Source: Fimicolochytrium jonesii (lineage: Eukaryota). Taken from it: a DNA stretch of 64,000 bases. The notes below the pieces were generated by a model, which did not search any database, had not been told where the DNA came from, and saw only the letters and a list, made by a program, of their open reading frames with translations. The stretch's first letter is position 1. Each line of letters starts with the position of its first letter. The position numbers and the translations under genes are program-made. The stretch is from contig NW_026515678.1 of NCBI RefSeq assembly GCF_025526975.1, positions 372,001-436,000 of the forward strand. The letters are read 5' to 3'. Shown piece by piece: positions 28,617-54,733 of the stretch.

Positions 28617-31600
28617 CTAATATTCTATCATCCCGTCGTCATTATAGAGCGGGTTCTCAATCATGTCCACAGGAGGCTGATAAAGTGGGTTGCTCACAGC
28701 GTAAGCAGCATTCGTCATGTTGTCGGCAACTGCGCGACTCTGCAGCTCGTTCGCGGCGCCTCGTCGTCGGCGCATGAATACGATTGCAGAAACGACACTC
28801 AAAGCTCCTACACCTCCCACCACGGATGCGGCTGCGGCGGTGGTCGTTCCGGCGCCGCCGCTGCCGGAACCTGTGCCATCCGGTGTAGCCGTGACGGTCA
28901 CATATGTAGTCGATGTTTCTGTGGTTCTGACGACCTGCTGAGCAGTGCTGGTTGTTGTTGTGGTTTTGAAACTCGTAATAGTCAAGGGCTGTGCGGTCAC
29001 TGTGATTGTTGAGGCGGGTTCCCTTTCGGTGACGGTCACTGTTTCCGCGGGCTCCGTTTCAGTGACCGTGAGGGTAGATTCTGGCCCCGACACCGTGACT
29101 GTCGAAGCGGATCCCCTCTCGGTTACGGTCACTGTTGCCGCCGGCTCCGTCTCCGTGACCGTGATCGTAGAAGCTGGCTGCGACACGGTGGTCGTAGAAG
29201 CCGGGAGCGTCAACACAGAAACGGAAGTTACGGTAACGGGGGATGCACTCGCGGTCTCTGTCTCGCGGACAGTTACAGCTGAAGTGGCTGTGGTTGTCTG
29301 GGTTTCTGTAGTGGTGGTGGTCGGTTCCGCGACGCTCCTGAGTGTTCGGGTAACAGTAGAAGCGGGCTCGGTTTGCACATCGGTCTGCGTTTCACGCACG
29401 GTTGCGGTCGAAGTGGCCGTCTCAGTTTCACGCACGGTCGAGTATGATGTGGCGGTCTGAGTTGCCGTGGAAACCTGAGTCTCAGTTTCAGTCTGAGTCT
29501 GAGTTTCAACCAAAGTCTCCGTCGTCGCGATTCTCCTAGACTCGGTAACCGTCTGCGTCACCGGGTCTGCTGTGGAAGTCAGGTAAACGGTAGTGCCATC
29601 CTTCGTCGACCAGTACACCGCGGTCTCCGTGTCGACTTCAGTGCGAGTCGAGAGCGCCGTTGTGGTGCTCGTAACAGTGCTAGCGGGCTGCACGCTGATG
29701 GTCGTTAGGGTAGAATAGCTCGTGTAGTAAAAACTGTCTATTTCAGTTGAAATCAAGGTCAAAACTGATGTTTCCGTGTCGATTTCGGTCGAAATTTCGG
29801 TCGTGGTGCTCGTAACAGTGCTAGCCGGCCGCTCACTGATCGAAGTGATAGTCGAATAGCTCGTGTAGTAATAGTTGTCCACCTCAGTTGAAACGACCGT
29901 GCTCGTCGCGGTCGCAGTGCTGGTTTGCGTTTGAGTTGCAGTCTGAGTTTGGATCTGGGTTTCGGTTGACATCTGTATCTGAGTCGCGGTACTAGTCGCA
30001 GTGGCCGTGGTAGTCTGGGTATCGGTCAGCGTCGTAGACTGAACGCTAACTACGGTAGTCGCAGTAGTAGTCGTCGCAGTGATAGTAGAGGCTGGCGCGG
30101 TTGTTGTGGTGGTGGCGGTGTCGGTCTTAGTGCTCGTGGTAGCCGTCGTGGTCGTCGCAGTGACCGTAGAGGCTGGCGCAGTTGTTGTCGTGGTGGAGGT
30201 TACCGAAAGCAAGCTGGTGGAGATGATAGTGCTAGTTGTGGTGGTGGGCTGCACGCTCACGGAGGTGGAAACGGAGATAACCGTGCTAGTCTCCGTGGTT
30301 GACTGGACACTGACTGAGGTGGAGACGGAGTTGGAGACAGAGACAACAGTGGTGGTTGTCGTGGTAGGCTGGACGCTCACGGAGATCACGGTGCTAGTTG
30401 TTGTGGTAGGCTGTACGCTAGTTGTTGTCATGACCAGAGTCTCCGTCTGTGTGGCCGTAGCTGTCGTAGTCGCGGTTCTCGAGCCATAAGTGGTGACTGC
30501 GCATGGACACTTGTTCCAGAGACGAATACGACCATCGCTCTGACCAGCGGCGAGGTACGTCCCTGTGTCGGCGACAGCGCGTGCCAGCGAAGAGTTCGTG
30601 GTACCTACACCGGCTCCGTAGCTCCAGGCGAGACTGAATGTTGGCTTCAGCGTCCATTGCCGGATTACTTCATCTTTCCCGCTGGTAAGAAGATAAGATG
30701 CTCCATCCTTATCCATCTGGCCAAGGGTCCATACGGCGGCATTGCCCCCGGCGGGATCGTGCTTGAAAACCTGGTATGATTGCATAGTGGCTCGAATGAT
30801 GACGTGGACTGTGATAGGAGAACAAACAACCGGTCAGGATGCCTGCGCCTTGATGCATATGAGGGAGCCACCAACAATGACCCAACCATGGCCTGGCAAG
30901 AAACAACGAACGCTCACCATTTCCGCTGAAGTCACCAGCAATGACATATCTATCCATCACCAAAAGCGCACCCACGCGATATGAAGTCGTGACGTTATAG
31001 AGCGCCACGGGCGCGGTGGTATTGGCCCAATCATACTTGTAGACGGCAGTCCAGTTGTGTGGGCTGATGTAGGTGGTGTATACGTGCTGGCCATCGTAAA
31101 CCGCGCCAACCGCGTCGCCAAAACCACCTGGTACTGTAGCAGACGGAGTGGCAGTTCCAATATCCCATAAATACGCCTTGTTGTCCTTCGATGGAGCAAT
31201 GCTAATGGTGTCGGTGTGGGAAATTAGACTGGTAGGTCATCTCAGGCACGCACAATCATGGGTGGTGAACATACATCTGATTGCCATAAGTCTCCAACCC
31301 CGACAACAACTCGGTAGGGCCGGTGTATACTGTTCCGCTCGGTGACGCTCCTACCTGTTGCGTCGTGTTGTCTATGTTCCAGCTCCACACCGAGGAGTCG
31401 TTTATGCGCGCGGCATAAAGCACATTGCTAGGATGGACTGCCAGGGCGTCATGCTGATAGGTAGCGCCAATCGTACGCAATATCGCGCCGGTTGCTATAT
31501 TCCATTGAACGATCGTATTGTCGTAACTGGAGGAAAATAAAGTCGTGTTTTGTAGACCGACGGCGATGTCCCACACAAAGGCCGTGTGTACGATCATGTC

Positions 31601-31714
31601 CCGATAGGTATAGTTTGACGCGGAGGAAGAGACAAATTGTCCACACACCGCCGTACTCTGCGCAAAAAGAGCTACCGCTGTTGAGGCTATCGAGGCCCAT
31701 GCCTGCCACTTCAT
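28617..31714 (-). CDS. Type I membrane protein: signal peptide, extracellular WD40 propeller, Thr/Ser-rich stalk, TM helix, tail with two NPLY motifs (exons 31714-31275, 31228-30918, 30808-28617; ~980 aa)
   Basis: Two GT-AG introns give a continuous 2943-nt frame. WD blades: HTAFVWDIAV...SSSYDNTIVQWN, SKDNKAYLWD, TSGKDEVIRQWT, AGQSDGRIRLWN. Many N-x-S/T sequons. TM ASVVGGVGALSVVSAIVFM followed by RRRR. Confidence 0.9.
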
Positions 31715-31861
31715 CGCTCCGGGTATCATCACAGTGGGTCTGAAGGATTCCTCAAGAACGATATGCAATCACACAATCACTCGTCGATAAAGCCTGGCTT
31801 GATCGAACGGCGGGGATTAAATCTAAGGTTTAAATCTTTTCGGCGACAGTTGTTCGCAAGT

Positions 31862-31972
31862 TTCGCCCTCTCGAGCAGTGTATGCGAGACCGGGTATAAT
31901 CAAAGTTGGCAGAATTCGCTCTCTCCAGCAGTGTATGCGAGACCGGGTATATCCAAAGTTGGCAGGATTCGC
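31862..31972. repeat. Near-perfect 53-bp tandem duplication upstream of the receptor gene
   Basis: ttcgc.ctctc.agcagtgtatgcgagaccgggtata..caaagttggcag.a twice. Confidence 0.9.
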
Positions 31973-32842: not shown

Positions 32843-35296
32843 ATGGCGCGCAACCTCTCGTCATCCTCCGTCGTCTTGTCCGTATCATCGACCCCATTAA
32901 AGTGGATAGTCACCCTATGTGCAACATTCAGCGCAGGCCTAGCGCTAGCATTTGTGGCGAGAAAGGCTAAGAGGCAGCTACCGAGATGTGACGATGGTGG
33001 GCATTGTGTTTCCTTTGCGAGCCGGCTTGTCTGAGACTTTGCGAAGCATCTTCGTTTTGACCGACAGGTTCCTCACATGCAACAGGTGTTCTGATAAACA
33101 GCCACACGCAATTCCAGAACGTGAGGGGGAAACGGCTGAGAACTGTCTTTATGGAGCATAAGCTAGGGAGACAGCTGCCTCTTATCGTTCTGATTCATGG
33201 AATGGGCGCGCAGGTCAGCTTCACTTGTAAAGTTTGCCGAATATCCCTCCTGGAAGGTCTTTTCTCATTGAGTTTGCAAACTCTAGCTAGGGCAATGGAG
33301 CGAGCAGATCAAGCATTTTGCGACCAACGCGAATGTTCTGGCGTTTGATATCGTTGGACACGGACAGGTCAGGATTTTGCAGTTGAGCGTCAGGAAGCGC
33401 ATGAGGATTCTGACATCAAATTACAGAGCGAACGGGTAGATACGTGAGTAGGGGACTTGACTTGCCCGGATTTGGAGATTCGGATGACGGAGGCATTGAT
33501 GGTGATCAACGCTTAGGGAGGACGCCTATACCACCTCGGCCATCGTAGAGGACATCTGCGCGCTGCTGAGCCTTTACAAACCCAAAGCGGATTCGTTCAT
33601 CGTAAGCTGACCCTTCGCCGAAGTTCGATGGAGGAGTGTACAATGCTGTAATGGCGTCTCGCTGACACGTCTCCAGCTGATAGGTCACTCATACGGCTGC
33701 AATCTCATAACCTTCTTATACCCCCACCTGCAAGATCTCATCAAAGCCATCATCTTCCTATGCCCGAAATCCACGCCAACGCCGCACGAAGTGGAGAAGC
33801 TACGGCAGTTTGTGAAGACGCCTACAGTTTTGGTGGATATACTGCGGTATCTGGATCGTAGAGGAGGCATTTACTCGCCGTCGGTAAATCGGTTGGTGGG
33901 GAAGGAGGCGTCGCCGGCGCTTAGAGAACGGCAGATTCAGTGGAATGCGGCGCATTCGACGCGCGTGGCGAAGTGGATATTCAAAGGCGTAAGCCCCGGT
34001 TATATCTGTCCTTGAAGTTATTCACCATCTGAACTACCCCGACACAGGCGCATTTTGCAGAACCCGATCAGTATGCAGCAATTCGGTGTCCGGTCTTACT
34101 GGTGAGTATTTTCTTGCCTCCCTTACGAATGTCTGACGCTCACCTAGCGATCTGAAGATTGGAGCGGCCGAGGACCTTGTATGCCCAGTCACAACGAATC
34201 TGGAAGTTGTCCATGCGTGGCTATCAAAGACGTCCGACACGGTGTCGGAACCGTTCATCATCCCAAATGCTGGCCACCAGGTTATGCTAGAACACCCGGA
34301 CGTTGTGAATGCTATAATGTACAACTGGTTGATAGAAACGGGGTTTACGAAGGTCCGTATGGCGATGGTGATGGTGGCCGGCTGCGACTGCCTGTGCTCA
34401 CTCGTTTTGCATTATAGATGGATCTGAGCTACCAACTGCAGTTGAAGAAGTCCGCTCAATCGAAGTGGAGTCTCAAGTATGTAACCGAGGTGGTGTATCC
34501 TTTCTCCGATCCAAAGAGCGGGTCTGACCTTTGCATCGCAGAAATTATGAGAAGTGGAAAAAAGTGGCGCCTGTTTCAGCGGTGCCAGTGAAAACAACGG
34601 TGACGATATCCATATGTAGAATGCTATACGAGATCACTGGGCTCATCATTTTCCGTTCCACAGCTCTTCCGGCCTATGAAGACAATGCAACAGGACGACC
34701 CGGAACATACCCCGCGTGTATTTGCCAAGGAGCATCCTGAAATAGGGCTGGTATGGACGCGGCTGAGGTAGTTTTACCCGAGTCGAGGAAAGGTTACAAA
34801 AATCCCTTCCGCAAAGGTCATTGACATATCCCGCGAAGCCCCACCATACGCCGCCGAATCCTTCAACAACACCACCTGCGTCTACCAAAAGCTTGCCACA
34901 ACATCCAAAATCCCACCAACGCGCGACGAAGTGAAACGGTTCTGCGAGGTCGCGCGCGAGTTTTGGAGAAAGAATCCGGACACGCATATCGGGGTGCATT
35001 GCCATTATGGGTTCAACCGCACGGGCTTCATGGTGTGCTCGTACCTCATTGAGCAGAATGGATGCACGGTTGCCCAGGCGTTGGCGAACTTTGCGGAAGC
35101 GAGGCCGCCTGGGATACGGCATATTCACTTCAAGGTGAGCTCACTCATCTATGGGAAAGGGGTGCGCCGGACAGCGCCTACATCGCGGTATATGACCTAA
35201 CTTGCCTTGTCCATCATTTCTCGGAAGGACGAGTTGTACATGCGCTACACGGCAGGCGTGATGCGGTCGCCCAATAGGCAAGCCAAAGGTGCATAA
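32843..35296 (+). CDS. N-terminally anchored alpha/beta-hydrolase fused to a Cys-based dual-specificity/RNA-triphosphatase-like domain, many exons
   Basis: TM-like WIVTLCATFSAGLALAFVA, LIHGMG, FDIVGHG, nucleophile motif GHSYG (33683-33697), NAGHQVMLE. Spliced in frame to VIDISREAPPY and P-loop HCHYGFNRTG (34997-35026), then EARPPGI. Confidence 0.85.
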
Positions 35297-35676: not shown

Positions 35677-37987
35677 ATGGCCCAAGAACACTCCAGCCAC
35701 CACGTCCACCGCGAACGAACCATCGTAAAGGAAGTCGAGGACGACGAGTTCGAGTGTGACGACCAAGAGTGCATTTCGTACGGAACACGCCACCAAGCTT
35801 CCCATAGCTACCATCCCCACTCTCAGAATGATTTCACTGCACCTCACTCATATAGGCTTGGTGCACGTCTGAGGAATCTGTTTGTAGGGCCGCCGGCGGC
35901 TGATGCTGACGAGGTTCTTGTCGAGCAGGAGACGGTTAAGGTGGTTAGGGTGAAGTACAATAAGGTAAAGATCAGGGTGAACCTAGGGTTGTGTTTCTCC
36001 AATTCGATTCTTTGACTGACTTCTACCAACCAGGATGGCAAACGCAACGGACACCTCGACGTCTCGACTGTCGACGAGGAGCATAGGTTAGGCGAGGCTG
36101 TGAAGGGGAAATACAGAGGTAGCGCGGGAAGCATCAGCACGAGAAGTGGGAGTGAGGTGGATCATGTGAGATACAGGGCGCTGAGCGGTGCGAATGGAAT
36201 CAAGCACCGGGTAGGAGAGACGGAGAGGGAGGTGAAGAAGCAGGTATGTCATGGTGAAAGAAGTACAGTACGTTTAGACATGAATGTGAGACTGATTTAG
36301 GTACTACGACTATGCAGCCTGGCAGCTTGCTCGGCAACATATGGTCAGCCGTCACCACCGCCCTATCCAGCACCGACGACCGCCACCGCGTAATCGAACA
36401 CCGCGCCGGCCGCAAATACAACAAAGCCAAAAGCAACGCATACGGAGCCGCCCACGATTTCAAGACTGAAGCGGATCGCGTTGCCGCAGATGCAAAACAC
36501 CAGGCGGGGAGAGCGGCAGAGAACGTACTTGACACCGTCCCGGACTTGCGGGATGTCGTGGAAGAAAAGGCTGATAAAGCGAAAGAACAGGCGAAAGATA
36601 CAATCGAACATGCTACGGATGCAATTGGGAAGGCTGCCGAGGAAGCTGCGCAGCGATATAACACCGCAAAGGAACGGGCGTCACAGGGCGCTCAACGGGC
36701 TCGTGAGACGGTTGAAGATGGAATCAAGAAGGTGCAGGAAACCGCGGAGGAGGCCGCTGCGTTGTTGAAAGAAAAAGCAGCCAAAGCGGCCGAGGCGGTG
36801 AATGAGACTAAGGAGACGGTTAAACACCAGGTCGAGGAAACGGCCGAGGGTGTGAAACGGCGGGTGGAGAACGCTGCGCATCGCGTGAAAGCAGAACTGG
36901 ATGAGACGGTCGAGGCTCTCCGCAAGTCGGCTAAAAACGCCAAAGGGAAAGCGCACAACGTCAAAGAAGGCGTCAAGGGTATTCCGCAGACACTCAGAGA
37001 AGGCGTGAGGGAAACCGCACACACCATCAAAAAGAACGCACATAACCTCAAGAAAGGCGTGGAACATACCGCCCACAATGTCAAGCAAGGGGCCAAATTT
37101 ACCGCCCAGGATGTCAGGAAACATGTCAAGCAAGGCAGCGAGTCTGTGCTCCACACATTCGAGAGCGCTGCGGAATGCTTGGGGACGCGCGGACCCAGGA
37201 CGCAGGGATGGCATCCCCACGCGGGCTTGCCGGGGTTGGGAACTTATGGCGGCCCGATTACGGGTACACCGTTCGCCAATCCTGTGCCTGTAACTGCGTT
37301 TTACACGGCGTTGAGCACCCTGTGGTTCGTGTGGCTTGCCAGGTACGTGATATCATCCCCGCCCCCCCCCCCCCCCCCCCCCCCCCCCAAAAAAAGATGT
37401 TCTCCGTTGGTTGAGCTAACACTGCGATCCTCCGCTAGCCGAGTCCACAAAGCCCGCACCCGCACTCAAATCTACCACGGCTCCGGCGCCCTCCAACTCG
37501 CCCTCGAATCCTCGCCCTCCGTCCTCCTTTCCCAAACCACCACCACACCCTCAACCTCCCAAACCATCACAACAACCCACGAAACCACCGACGAAACCCC
37601 GCACATCACGCATATCCACCACCTCATCCGCGCCATCGATGCCCGCCGCACCTTCACGACCACAGTACCGGTGTATTTGATCGTCCTGGGGGCGATGGAG
37701 CTTGGGGGGGCGTACAGGCCGCTGTTGCACATGTTGAGTTGGGCGGTTTTGGTGGCGAGTGTTGTTATGACTGAGTGTGAGTACTCCTTGCGTTCATATT
37801 TGGTTGTTGGGGATGGTTTGCTCATGTTTCCGACATTTTGATCATAGACGGGATACTCCAACCCACCGCTCACGCCCCCGGAAGCGCGCGCGCCGTTGGG
37901 GCTGGTATCACTGCGGCTATCGTCCTGTTTGCTGCCTGCAAGGCCATGTATCTTGTGGTTACTTGCGCAGGACGTCCGGTTGTTTGA
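35677..37987 (+). CDS. LEA/apolipoprotein-like repeat protein with C-terminal MAPEG-like membrane domain (exons ~35677-35963, 36034-36243, 36318-37342, 37439-37776, 37848-37987)
   Basis: A/K/E-rich amphipathic repeats (KAKEQAKDTIE, TAHNVKQGAKF). C-terminus PVTAFYTAL...RVHKAR...LIRAIDARRTF...VPVYLIVLGAMELGGA...LLH...YGIL...ARAVG resembles the MAPEG four-helix pattern. Confidence 0.75.
37362..37388. repeat. Intronic poly(C)27 tract
   Basis: Lies inside intron 37343-37438 (GTACGT...gctaac...cTAG). Confidence 0.95.
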
Positions 37988-42584: not shown

Positions 42585-44272
42585 ATGTTCTCCGCATTCT
42601 CGGCCGCCCCGAAGCCTATGGAACACAGTGAGTTGCAAGCCCTTGTGCGAGATCAGATAATACAAGAAGCAGGTTCGTATCCTTGATTATCTCACCTACG
42701 GAGTTAGAGCGGCATACTCACGAATGGCGGTCTAATTTTTGGCAGGTGTCGACTTTGAAAGCCGCCCCATCTTGGCCATGTATTCGTGTTTCTTCCCGGA
42801 CCCTCGCGCGGCGAACTATGATGACTTGCTCAAGTGAGGCTTTTTGGAGAATAGGACCGTTGGAATGAATCTCGAGGAGGCGCTGACCCCTGCCCTAATG
42901 TGTCTGGAAGATTGCTTCTGCAACGGTTAGATGAAGTTGTGGAGAGCGATTATGTGCTAGTGTTCTTCGCCGCGGGCTCACAGTACCAGCCGGGATGGTC
43001 GTTCCTTTACCGGGCGTATTCATTATTAGGAAGAAAGTAAGCGGATCTGAGAACCGAATCATGATGGATGGTACCGCGCCAAAGCTAACGCCTCCACCTT
43101 CCAGATACCGCAAAAACCTAAAGTCGATGTTCATAGTCCACCCATCCCTTTGGCCACGCCTAATCATCCAAGGAATGGGAGCTGTGGTGAGGTTGTTATT
43201 CTACCCAGCGAGGATCATTCCTTAAGCATTGGAGGAGCGCTTTGAAGGCAAAGATGGCGCGAATAGCGTTTGAGCTGACAATTCCCGTGTATCTCTCCCC
43301 ATCAGCCCGAAGTTTGCGCGCAAGCTGGTCTGGGTATACAGTTTGGCGCAGTTGGGAGGTTCTGTGCCTTTGAAGCAGTTGCACGTGCCTGAGGCGGTCT
43401 TGGCGTGAGTAGGCGAACGTGCTATGTCGTGGACGAGAGGATCTGGACGCTGAGGTTTTGATCTTTGATAGGGTGGATGCGAAGAGTAGCAGCGGGAAAG
43501 TGTCGATGGAGAAGCTTCCGCCAGACACTTCTAGTGTTTTCGGGAAACCATTGGAGGAGATCATGGGGCTGAATGGAGAGGAGGGGTTACCACGGGTCGT
43601 GACGGATTGCATCGAGTACATTCGGAAAGACGGTAACGTCGCCGTCGTCCTGGGCTTCGTGTCGCAAACGTGGGCTGACCGACATACTCAACTGTTAGGG
43701 ATGAACGTGGAAGGCATCTTCCGCCGATCACCAGCATCACAACAACTGCAAGCCGCGAAACGGGCATACCAGACTGCAGAATCCACATACGATCTGCAAG
43801 CATCAGGGGATGTGCATCTCGCCTGCGTATTGCTAAAGACTTTCTTTCGAGATCTTCCAAATCCTGTGTTTTCGGCGGCGATGTATGATACGATACGGGG
43901 GATACAAAGTAAGATCACTCCTTCTTACTCAACGCACATTCCTTCTATCACGTTGACGCTCCACATCTACCCACAGGCCTCCCAACAGACTCCGCCCGCC
44001 TATCCTACACAAAGAACACCATCCTCCCCCTCCTCCCCCGCCCAACCTACCTTCTCCTCGAAGCAACCTTCGCGCTCCTCCACGACATCCACGCCAACTC
44101 CTCAACAAACCTGATGACATCAACCAACCTCACCATTGTGTGGGCGCCGAATCTGGTGCGGAGCGATAACCCGATCGCGGATTTTAGTATGGGCGCGATG
44201 GGCGCGCAGAGTGGAGGGGCGGGAAATGTGATTAGGATTTGTATTGAGCGGTTTGAGGAGGTTTTTGAGTAG
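42585..44272 (+). CDS. CRAL-TRIO/BCH plus RhoGAP protein (ARHGAP1/Ecm25-like), multi-exon
   Basis: VESDYVLVFF, YRKNLKSMFIVHPS, SPKFARKL, VFGKPLEE, arginine finger VEGIFRRS, LKTFFRDLPNP, NLTIVWAPNL. Confidence 0.9.
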
Positions 44273-45088: not shown

Positions 45089-46399
45089 ATGCGCAACACC
45101 CCTCTCTCCCGCCTACAAAACGGCGATGGGAAAGACCATCTCCTCCGCTCCGAGGACCACATCGCCCCGAACACCAATTTCACAATAACCACCTTATCCA
45201 CGTCCTCGTTGCACGATGGCGATGGGGATCTCGAGGATACGTACGGGAGGACATTGCGGGGGAAGAATAGCACGTTCGCGGATCTGACGCCGGGGGCGCT
45301 GGAGAAGATCCTTGATTTCATTGACGAACCTACCGCGTTGCTTAGGACGTGCACACGGCTAAGGAATGTAGGCAGGAATGTCGACGTGCGGTACCATTGG
45401 TTGGTCTCGCCGCGGCGCGCACGGCGGCTGCCCAAACTCGTTGGCGGTTCGTGGGGTGCCCATGCCGCGGCGATGACGCGGGCGATGGATTTGATATTCC
45501 GGGCATGCAAGCGTCGGATTGTTTCGGCGGAATTGATTGAATTGCTGCAATCGCAGGGGGATCTGCCGCCTAATGTAGGCAGTTTGAGGAGGGATGTGGC
45601 GGTGATGCGCGGGGCGGGGCCACGGGTGTGGGGTGGGTGGAAGGTGTTGGATGATGCGGTGGCGGAGATGGGCGATGATGAGCGGGTGGTGGAGTGGTGT
45701 GTCGCGGCCGGCTTTGTGACGGATGTCGATGGCGTTGTGCAGGGGATGTTGGGGAGAGGATGTTTAGAGGGATGTGTCAGTGTCCTGCGAGGTGTCGTTG
45801 AGGGCAACAAAGATGAAGAAGGTGCAGACGGTGCATTGGTGTCGAAAAGCGCTGCGAAAAACTATCCGGGATCGCAACATTCGCTAGCCGGTGGAACAGC
45901 TTCTCTTCCACCCTTGAAGCAGACTCCAACATCCGGAATGACGATAATCAATCCACACCCCGCCATCCTCGACCACCTCATCTCCCAATCCCCACTGCAT
46001 CCGCTCTTCCTCCGCATCCTCCCTCACCTCTCCCCACCGCTCATCCCCGCCTCAGCCCTCCCTCAGCTTCTCGCACACCCACACCTCCTCACGGCAATCT
46101 TCACGCACGCCCTCCTCCCGCTCGACTCGATCCTGCTGACACTCGCACAATCCACCGCGCCCATCCGCAAACAAATCCTGGCAACCCTCGCGATGCATCA
46201 AAAGGTGATCGAGGGGCAAATCAAAGGATGTCAGGAAGGTGCAGGGCGTTTGATGCGCAGGGCGGCGATGGAGGATGATGGGGAGACGTGTGAGTGGCTG
46301 GTTGAGGCTGGGGTGTCCGTGCCGGCTGTGGTTATGAAGATGGCAAAGGACATTGGGTCGAAGAAAGCGATTAAGGCGCTTAAGAAAGGAAAGACGTGA
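45089..46399 (+). CDS. Uncharacterised protein with an F-box-like N-terminal motif and an ankyrin-like C-terminal repeat
   Basis: 436-aa ORF from ATG 45089. FADLTPGALEKILDFIDEPTALLRTCTRL and LMRRAAMEDDGETCEWLVEAGV. Confidence 0.65.
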   Translation: MRNTPLSRLQNGDGKDHLLRSEDHIAPNTNFTITTLSTSSLHDGDGDLEDTYGRTLRGKNSTFADLTPGALEKILDFIDEPTALLRTCTRLRNVGRNVDVRYHWLVSPRRARRLPKLVGGSWGAHAAAMTRAMDLIFRACKRRIVSAELIELLQSQGDLPPNVGSLRRDVAVMRGAGPRVWGGWKVLDDAVAEMGDDERVVEWCVAAGFVTDVDGVVQGMLGRGCLEGCVSVLRGVVEGNKDEEGADGALVSKSAAKNYPGSQHSLAGGTASLPPLKQTPTSGMTIINPHPAILDHLISQSPLHPLFLRILPHLSPPLIPASALPQLLAHPHLLTAIFTHALLPLDSILLTLAQSTAPIRKQILATLAMHQKVIEGQIKGCQEGAGRLMRRAAMEDDGETCEWLVEAGVSVPAVVMKMAKDIGSKKAIKALKKGKT

Positions 46400-53815: not shown

Positions 53816-54733
53816 ATGGCGTTCACAACCGGCCACATGTCGACCTCCAAGCTCTCCTTCAAGCGCAAACGACCGCTCTCGCCACCTCCAGCGCCAGCTC
53901 CCCCACCGCAGCATCGCGCCTCAAAGTCTCAACCTACCGATCATTTCCGCCCTCTCAAAAAGGAACCACTCTGGAACGACGGAAAGAATAAAACCCAGTT
54001 CGCGCCGCAATCTAGCTCAAAGATACCCAAATCCAGCTACTACAAACCCATCCCGACTTCCGACTTCGGCGACGACTTCATCTCCATCAAAGAAGAAAAA
54101 GAATCTCTCTGGAGCGATGTAAAGGACGAATCCGAACAGCAGGACTCCCGCCAAGCTGAATGGGCGGCCTGGAGCGGCGCGGTTCCGAAACGTTGGCAGA
54201 ATTACGATACATGGGCAGACGGGATACGCGAAGGGATGGAGGTGAAACGTGAGAAAGGGCCGAGGAACCGTTACGCACGCCGCCGAACGGAAGGGGAAAA
54301 AAGTTGGGGAAGGGGAACGAAAGAAGAACTACACCAAAGGAGGAAGGGAAAAGCCCAACGCAAAGCCGCGGACGCCTTGAGGGATCCGAATTCCTTCGCA
54401 TCGCGCCTAACTGACGGCCGACAGAAATATCGCTCGCGATGGACCACCCTCAAAGCCGCTCCGCCAAACACTCTCGACGACCGAGACCTGCCGATCCCTT
54501 CCTTAAGCCAGGATAAAATCACTGCCAACAGCATACACCAGTTCCTGTTTGAAGGCTGCGAATTCACAAGGGACGAGAAGAGGAAGATGGTGAAGGATAG
54601 TCTGTTGCTTTGGCATCCGGATAAGTTTGGGAAGATGTTGGAGGCTTTCAAGGAGGAGAAGAGAACAAGGGTTGCATGGGTTGCGCAGGAGTTGTCGAAG
54701 GCGTTGACGGAATTGTATGGGACGTTTGGGTGA
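53816..54733 (+). CDS. Uncharacterised basic protein with C-terminal NFKBIL1-like/J-like HPDKF domain
   Basis: Intronless ORF containing YRSRW...DLPIP...RKMVKDSLLLWHPDKF...AQELSKAL; start at 53816 or 53837. Confidence 0.75.
   Translation: MAFTTGHMSTSKLSFKRKRPLSPPPAPAPPPQHRASKSQPTDHFRPLKKEPLWNDGKNKTQFAPQSSSKIPKSSYYKPIPTSDFGDDFISIKEEKESLWSDVKDESEQQDSRQAEWAAWSGAVPKRWQNYDTWADGIREGMEVKREKGPRNRYARRRTEGEKSWGRGTKEELHQRRKGKAQRKAADALRDPNSFASRLTDGRQKYRSRWTTLKAAPPNTLDDRDLPIPSLSQDKITANSIHQFLFEGCEFTRDEKRKMVKDSLLLWHPDKFGKMLEAFKEEKRTRVAWVAQELSKALTELYGTFG

Follow-up and report, generated by a model that had tools for sequence, protein, structure and literature searches.

A candidate single-chain receptor from a chytrid, with a WD40 head and a tail weakly but specifically like those of integrin beta

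The head of integrin beta subunits is defined by a betaI (von Willebrand A, vWA) domain with MIDAS, ADMIDAS and SyMBS sites, and the Sib proteins, described as seen only in dictyostelids, also have an extracellular vWA domain (bioRxiv 2020.04.29.069435). SibA carries two NPXY motifs and is reported to bind talin A via the proximal one in a force-bearing link (PMC9197732, PMC12686525), and in the discussion of the second of these reports it is proposed that amoebal receptors with integrin-like tails use talin. The integrin tails of Capsaspora recruit human talin through NPXY/F in a tail-clustering assay (PMC6450878). Basal fungi are described as being without integrin, with the functional substitute called yet unidentified, while zoosporic fungi retain talin, vinculin, paxillin and the ILK complex (PMC5042518). 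Most of the chytrids examined are reported to have talin, and Rhizoclosmatium and Dikarya to lack it (bioRxiv 2020.06.12.142943). Considered here is a gene of Fimicolochytrium jonesii at 28617-31714 on the minus strand of a 64,000-nucleotide stretch of contig NW_026515678.1 (the window; positions 372,001 to 436,000 of the forward strand, assembly GCF_025526975.1). Its predicted product has a WD40 head, a mucin-like stalk, one membrane helix and a short tail with two NPLY motifs, and on balance it is probably a single-chain adhesion receptor, Sib-like in type, whose proximal NPLY would recruit talin for force coupling.

The predicted cytoplasmic tail comprises 51 residues (921-971; 28620..28772, minus strand, as for all features of the gene given below). 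Its membrane-proximal NPLY, the predicted site for the F3 lobe of talin, is at residues 948-951 (28680..28691) and its membrane-distal NPLY at residues 960-963 (28644..28655), exactly where a preliminary description of the locus had placed the pair. The two distances given there also held up on the spliced model, with the NPLY-x8-NPLY stretch beginning 27 residues past the helix and a spacer of eight residues between the motifs. When the residues of the tail were shuffled 1,000,000 times, two NPx[YF] motifs eight residues apart arose in 11 cases, and the NPLY pair is the sole double motif in the six frames of the window. It is not a recent duplication, since the two 36-nucleotide units around the motifs are identical at only 16 of 36 bases, and their Pro and Leu codons differ.

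Further features of the tail bear on talin. An aromatic residue, Tyr944 (28701..28703), stands at N-4 of the proximal motif and is replaced by Phe in the Geranomyces homolog discussed below; integrins have a conserved Trp three to four residues upstream of this motif, and the three-residue linker of the fungal Tyr or Phe puts it in the register of Trp747 of integrin beta2. That Trp with its three-residue linker is reported to give tighter talin binding than is seen in beta3 and beta7, where the linker has four residues (PMC12637224). At Y+3 there is a proline, Pro954 (28671..28673), kept in Geranomyces and aligning with P786 of integrin beta1D, which is reported to be one of two residues that distinguish beta1D from beta1A in the talin-binding region and whose effect on force required kindlin (PMC10293852). 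The C-terminal GM[IL][ED]Y (28620..28634) is conserved in both fungi, lies outside the integrin alignment and could be a third docking site. Folding of helix and tail with two sequences gave a continuous helix that stops just before Tyr944, at a predicted local distance difference test score (pLDDT) of 56 that is too weak to count.

The preliminary description had proposed a scan of the tail with the Pfam model Integrin_b_cyt (PF08725). For the tail by itself no other family came up at E<=10; the match (E 0.003) scores 17.7 bits, under the cutoff of 23.4. For the Geranomyces protein, too, Integrin_b_cyt is the only Pfam family at E<=10 (11.5 bits, E 0.26, below the same cutoff). A profile of the two tails had a single match at E<=10 among 177,635 PDB sequences. 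This is chain C of 3G9W, the tail of integrin beta-1D, and the alignment (E 0.45) puts both motifs in register; 3G9W is reported to be the complex of integrin beta1D with talin2 (PMC12637224). When the tail was used as a single sequence, the PDB search returned chance prion matches only, at E about 1, and these were set aside. As far as sequence comparison goes, the likeness to beta-integrin tails is weak but specific.

Helix and tail together have one match at E<=0.001 among 1,835,955,588 representative proteins, KAJ3182369.1 (hypothetical protein HDU87_008532) of Geranomyces variabilis, order Spizellomycetales (E 2e-7, 47% identity). Its tail retains both NPLY motifs, the eight-residue spacer, Phe at N-4, Pro at Y+3 and the C-terminal GM[IL][ED]Y, at a membrane distance of 26 residues; conservation of the motif spacing in relatives, on which the preliminary description had made its reading depend beforehand, is thus seen in this single homolog. 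Identical columns number 15 of 25 in the stretch that starts with the first NPLY and ends at the C-terminus, and 11 of 21 in the helix; in the juxtamembrane segment there are 8 of 27, and the motif region is therefore conserved well above its flanks. The Geranomyces protein, of 217 residues, is Thr/Ser-rich and has no signal peptide and no head; its gene model is probably truncated, as judged from its sequence, and upstream exons may exist. A word-indexed protein search with the tail had none of 2236 candidates at E<=1, and of 7998 candidates scored with the two-tail profile, the Geranomyces protein was the only match. Two nucleotide matches were rejected, one from a metagenome scan (L001:2315-2371; one of 71 stretches passed) and the other from a scan of prokaryote genomes (L002:4001-4102; one of 32 passed). 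Each is an NPLYQP reading antisense to a bacterial ORF (open reading frame) on a Bacteroidota-type contig, the ORF being Sco-like by eye.

The head (residues 36-340; 30513..31609) is by its sequence made of WD40 propeller repeats, about seven blades, with seven repeats counted from the spacing of W/Y-D/N/T ends; this layout was arrived at by inspection and the fourth blade was recognized by eye only. Pfam WD40 scores 27.2 bits in exon 3 against a cutoff of 27, exon 1 matches several propeller families weakly (E 5e-5 to 6e-4), and exon 2 alone has no Pfam match. A repeat profile of our own, built from 61 repeats in the matches of the exon 1 search, reached 34.4 bits compared with at most 5.4 in 200 shuffles, and longer profiles align across residues 43-176 and 213-349. 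The Atlas feature search groups exon 1 with WD40 clusters at 0.92-0.94; folded alone from its single sequence, exon 1 had a pLDDT of 39. In the protein search with exon 1, 13 of 469 candidates matched, all generic long multi-repeat WD40 proteins (the named ones bacterial-type) with 26-43% identity over parts, and there was no true ortholog. At E<=10 the exon pieces matched WD40 and propeller families of Pfam, with no match to a vWA or integrin head or to FG-GAP. The propeller would bind a ligand.

The preliminary description was also right about the overall anatomy, with a signal-like start, sequon-bearing WD40 head, Thr-rich stalk, Gly/Ala-rich helix and tail of about 50 residues all recovered in the 971-residue model. 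A probable signal peptide, judged from hydropathy (1.3 over residues 7-25) and sequence, occupies residues 1-25 (31640..31714), and an alternative in-frame ATG at 31729 could lengthen the N-terminus by five residues. Residues 26-345, which take in the head, have eight N-glycosylation sequons as against 3.07 in shuffles (P 0.005). The Thr/Ser-rich mucin-like stalk (residues 346-885, 540 in all; 28878..30497) is 37% Thr and 14% Ser with no Cys, and its coding DNA has internal repeats of 93, 54, 36 and 18 nucleotides; the Cys-rich stalk of PSI/EGF type found in integrin beta is accordingly not seen over these residues. It would be O-glycosylated and extended, keeping the propeller off the membrane or carrying it through a thin coat. 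The whole protein has one 19-residue hydropathy peak above 1.5, centered on the single Gly/Ala-rich transmembrane helix (residues 900-920; 28773..28835), which has a small-xxx-small pattern and is followed by four Arg. The positive-inside rule and the excess of sequons in the head point to type I topology.

Read straight, 31714-28617 contains stop codons, so the gene is not a single ORF, and removal of two GT-AG introns gives a frame of 2916 nucleotides and 971 residues with no internal stop. Of 1615 open two-intron models it is the only one with a consensus donor, a YAG acceptor and a CTRAY branch at both introns, criteria that were chosen after the model had been picked, and the WD40 profile alone ranks it only 80th of the 1615. 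Because that profile does not single out the model and a sequencing-run search listed no RNA run as containing the gene, the splice sites are counted as inferred, as are the three exons of this intact gene on the minus strand. Exon 1 (31275..31714; residues 1-146) runs from the start codon through the signal-peptide-like stretch and blades 1-2 of the WD40 head into blade 3, most of which it encodes; exon 2 (30918..31201) has the end of blade 3, blade 4 and most of blade 5; exon 3 (28617..30808) has blades 6-7, the stalk, the membrane helix, the tail and the stop codon. Putative intron 1 (31202..31274, 73 nucleotides) has a GTATGT donor, a CTAAT branch and a TAG acceptor, and putative intron 2 (30809..30917, 109 nucleotides) a GTGAGC donor, a CTGAC branch and a CAG acceptor. 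One soil DNA run gave five records, with two 151-nucleotide pieces near-identical across the tail end and helix, which are uninformative on expression. As the product was absent from the results of the protein-collection search, whereas three of nine neighboring ORFs tested were present as NCBI proteins, the gene may have been missed by annotation. About 150-260 nucleotides upstream of the start codon there is a 53-nucleotide direct repeat (31862-31972; 2.1 copies, 91% matches), possibly a duplicated promoter element.

With integrin beta the chytrid protein shares two NPxY motifs eight residues apart at a similar distance from the membrane, a single helix with a short tail, the aromatic residue ahead of the first motif in the beta2 register and the Y+3 proline of beta1D. 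It has none of the betaI/MIDAS head, Cys-rich stalk or HDRKE-type segment of integrins, and its tail, under the Pfam cutoff, has Tyr or Phe in place of Trp and an extra C-terminal GM[IL][ED]Y. SibA-SibE of Dictyostelium are likewise type I single-pass proteins with a Gly-rich helix, two NPXY motifs and no canonical alpha partner, but their head is an extracellular vWA domain instead of WD40 repeats on a mucin-like stalk, and where SibA binds talin A through its proximal motif the chytrid talin site is a predicted one. The mannose-binding protein of Acanthamoeba and similar amoebal receptors also join a non-integrin ectodomain to an NPXY tail; the Acanthamoeba protein differs in being amoebozoan and in its lectin head, with a single motif mentioned. 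The resemblance to integrin alpha is by analogy only, in a seven-bladed extracellular propeller as candidate ligand-binding head, for the alpha propeller is FG-GAP with a GFFKR tail while the chytrid repeats score as WD40 and there is no GFFKR. By its defining sequence features the protein is neither an integrin nor a Sib, yet its tail likely works like theirs. Literature searches found no description of a chytrid NPxY receptor, nor of a twin-NPxY receptor from the chytrid lineage whose extracellular head is WD40, with most subscription journals outside their coverage.

In the proposed mechanism the propeller would grip a surface or a partner, the glycosylated stalk would span the coat, and the Gly/Ala-rich helix may cluster the receptor. 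The proximal aromatic(N-4)-NPLY-x-x-P would dock the PTB-like F3 lobe of talin and so connect to actin, with the distal NPLY taking a second partner of FERM/PTB type and the C-terminal motif another, neither being kindlin. The talins of Spizellomycetales are probably full length with a FERM head. Kindlin, a tail partner in the preliminary description, has to be dropped, as it is reported from no premetazoan, though the distal motif persists in premetazoan beta tails (PMC4325847); the lack of canonical integrins in fungi that the same description assumed agrees with reports of chytrids with talin and without integrin (PMC5042518, bioRxiv 2020.06.12.142943). The receptor would serve when zoospores crawl, or in attachment or germination. 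As nothing points to an alpha partner or to inside-out activation, its role more likely lies in force coupling and clustering than in activation of the integrin type; the alpha-clasp motif is present in neither fungal tail.

Several observations weigh against a talin-coupled adhesion receptor. There is a single homolog, a headless 217-residue model, and the tail family is two sequences. The Integrin_b_cyt matches, below their cutoff of 23.4, are confined to positions 25-44 of the 44-position model, its motif half, the PDB match is weak and below threshold, and neither fungal tail has a Trp before the proximal motif or an HDRKE-type segment. The Atlas search with helix and tail gave only leads below 0.9, to fungal proteins of WSC/Mid2 type. 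In Orpinomyces, whose genome is partial, talin has its middle domain at residues 100-262 with no FERM domain listed, and the scaffold genes are down on insoluble cellulose, which speaks against a simple adhesion role there. NPxY motifs are read by many adaptors. APP is reported as an example (PMC11597407), and one examined chytrid, Rhizoclosmatium, is without talin (bioRxiv 2020.06.12.142943).

A different explanation, rated rather unlikely, makes the tail a trafficking signal. Clathrin adaptors or a recycler like SNX17 would then read the NPLY motifs, and the protein would be a mucin-like receptor of the surface or for uptake, without a force-bearing link. Tails of the low-density lipoprotein receptor type have NPxY as their classic sorting signal, and a tail without the integrin clasp segment would suit such a role, but the sorting consensus FxNPxY calls for an aromatic at N-2 where the two fungi have V and T, the yeast signal is NPFxD whereas the motif here is not NPF, and YxxPhi follows neither Tyr of the tail. 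SNX17 is listed in the literature as a recycler of NPxY cargo, integrins included. A sorting signal would leave unexplained the eight-residue spacer, the distance of 26-27 residues and the Y+3 proline. Two features linked with talin binding, the aromatic at N-4 and the Pro at Y+3, tell against a reading in which the tail binds a FERM protein other than talin, with the MyTH-FERM myosin Myo22 as the best candidate, that would move the receptor along actin protrusions with talin secondary or absent. Myo22 is reported in Spizellomyces and in Rhizoclosmatium, the latter being without talin, but is missing in three of five chytrids examined (bioRxiv 2020.06.12.142943), and while a non-kindlin partner is required for the distal NPLY and talin A and myosin VII are reported to act jointly in Dictyostelium (PMC9197732), Myo22 in place of talin is considered decidedly unlikely. 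As a second partner it is compatible with a talin-bound receptor.

The build of the protein also brings to mind wall-stress sensors of the Wsc/Mid2/Msb2 type, with a Ser/Thr spring, a wall-anchored head and a tail signaling to a Rho guanine nucleotide exchange factor or a kinase, the likeness to integrins then being convergent. Wsc/Mid2-type sensors do have the same order of signal, head, Ser/Thr stalk, one helix and short tail, and the nearest Atlas clusters for helix and tail are a fungal WSC-fragment (0.83) and Mid2 (0.77). However, a third of shuffled proteins attain Atlas scores below 0.9, Pfam has no match to WSC, Mid2 or SKG6 at E<=10, and instead of a Cys-rich WSC head with such a tail the chytrid protein has a WD40 head and twin NPLY, making this interpretation still more improbable than that of Myo22 in place of talin. 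Least credible, and already largely refuted, is that the twin motif is functionless, through chance or a recent duplication of 12 residues, or that the locus is a decaying gene. The 12-residue period of the motifs and the failure of the product to appear in the protein collection would fit, but the low identity and differing codons of the two 36-nucleotide units, the retention of both motifs in a protein only 47% identical across the region, and 2916 nucleotides open with no stop do not.

Elsewhere in the window there is a single-exon pectinesterase at 1521-2684 on the plus strand (PF01095, E 2e-45), the strand of the other neighbors with coordinates given here. A 509-residue ORF at 36312-37841 has apolipoprotein-like amphipathic repeats below Pfam cutoffs and is LEA- or perilipin-like by guess. 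Fragments of a dual-specificity phosphatase (34772-35197) and of a RhoGAP (43506-44114) lie 3-12 kb upstream of the receptor gene, with no evidence tying either to it. Two annotated single-exon proteins, of 436 residues (45089-46399) and 305 residues (53816-54733), form single-member clusters with no significant Pfam match. Among 25 and a further 69 ORFs of the window, Pfam detected no adhesome gene near the receptor. For a neighboring proteasome subunit the scores are 679 bits with the human protein, 646 with a further entry and 638 with entries titled '26S proteasome regulatory subunit 8 homolog', which we take to be from yeast. Such scores, the chytrid homolog of the receptor and the short introns with CTRAY branches are in keeping with a zoosporic fungus as the source.

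Beyond the single gene, it may be, tentatively and with the odds somewhat against it, that in chytrids a family of single-chain receptors took the place of integrins, its members having in common a talin-docking tail of integrin-beta type under swapped heads, this gene supplying the version in which a WD40 propeller, normally intracellular, became the adhesive head and serving as the missing anchor of the fungal talin adhesome. If so, a single chain would combine the roles that animals divide between the alpha propeller and the beta tail. A WD40 propeller outside the cell on a twin-NPxY receptor would be unusual in itself, and a 51-residue chytrid tail with conserved determinants of talin type makes the question of the missing receptor testable. 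Should the tail bind talin, the link between talin and NPxY would have been kept in the fungal line under different outer heads, with a bearing on how zoospores grip while crawling and on whether the tail module predates integrins.

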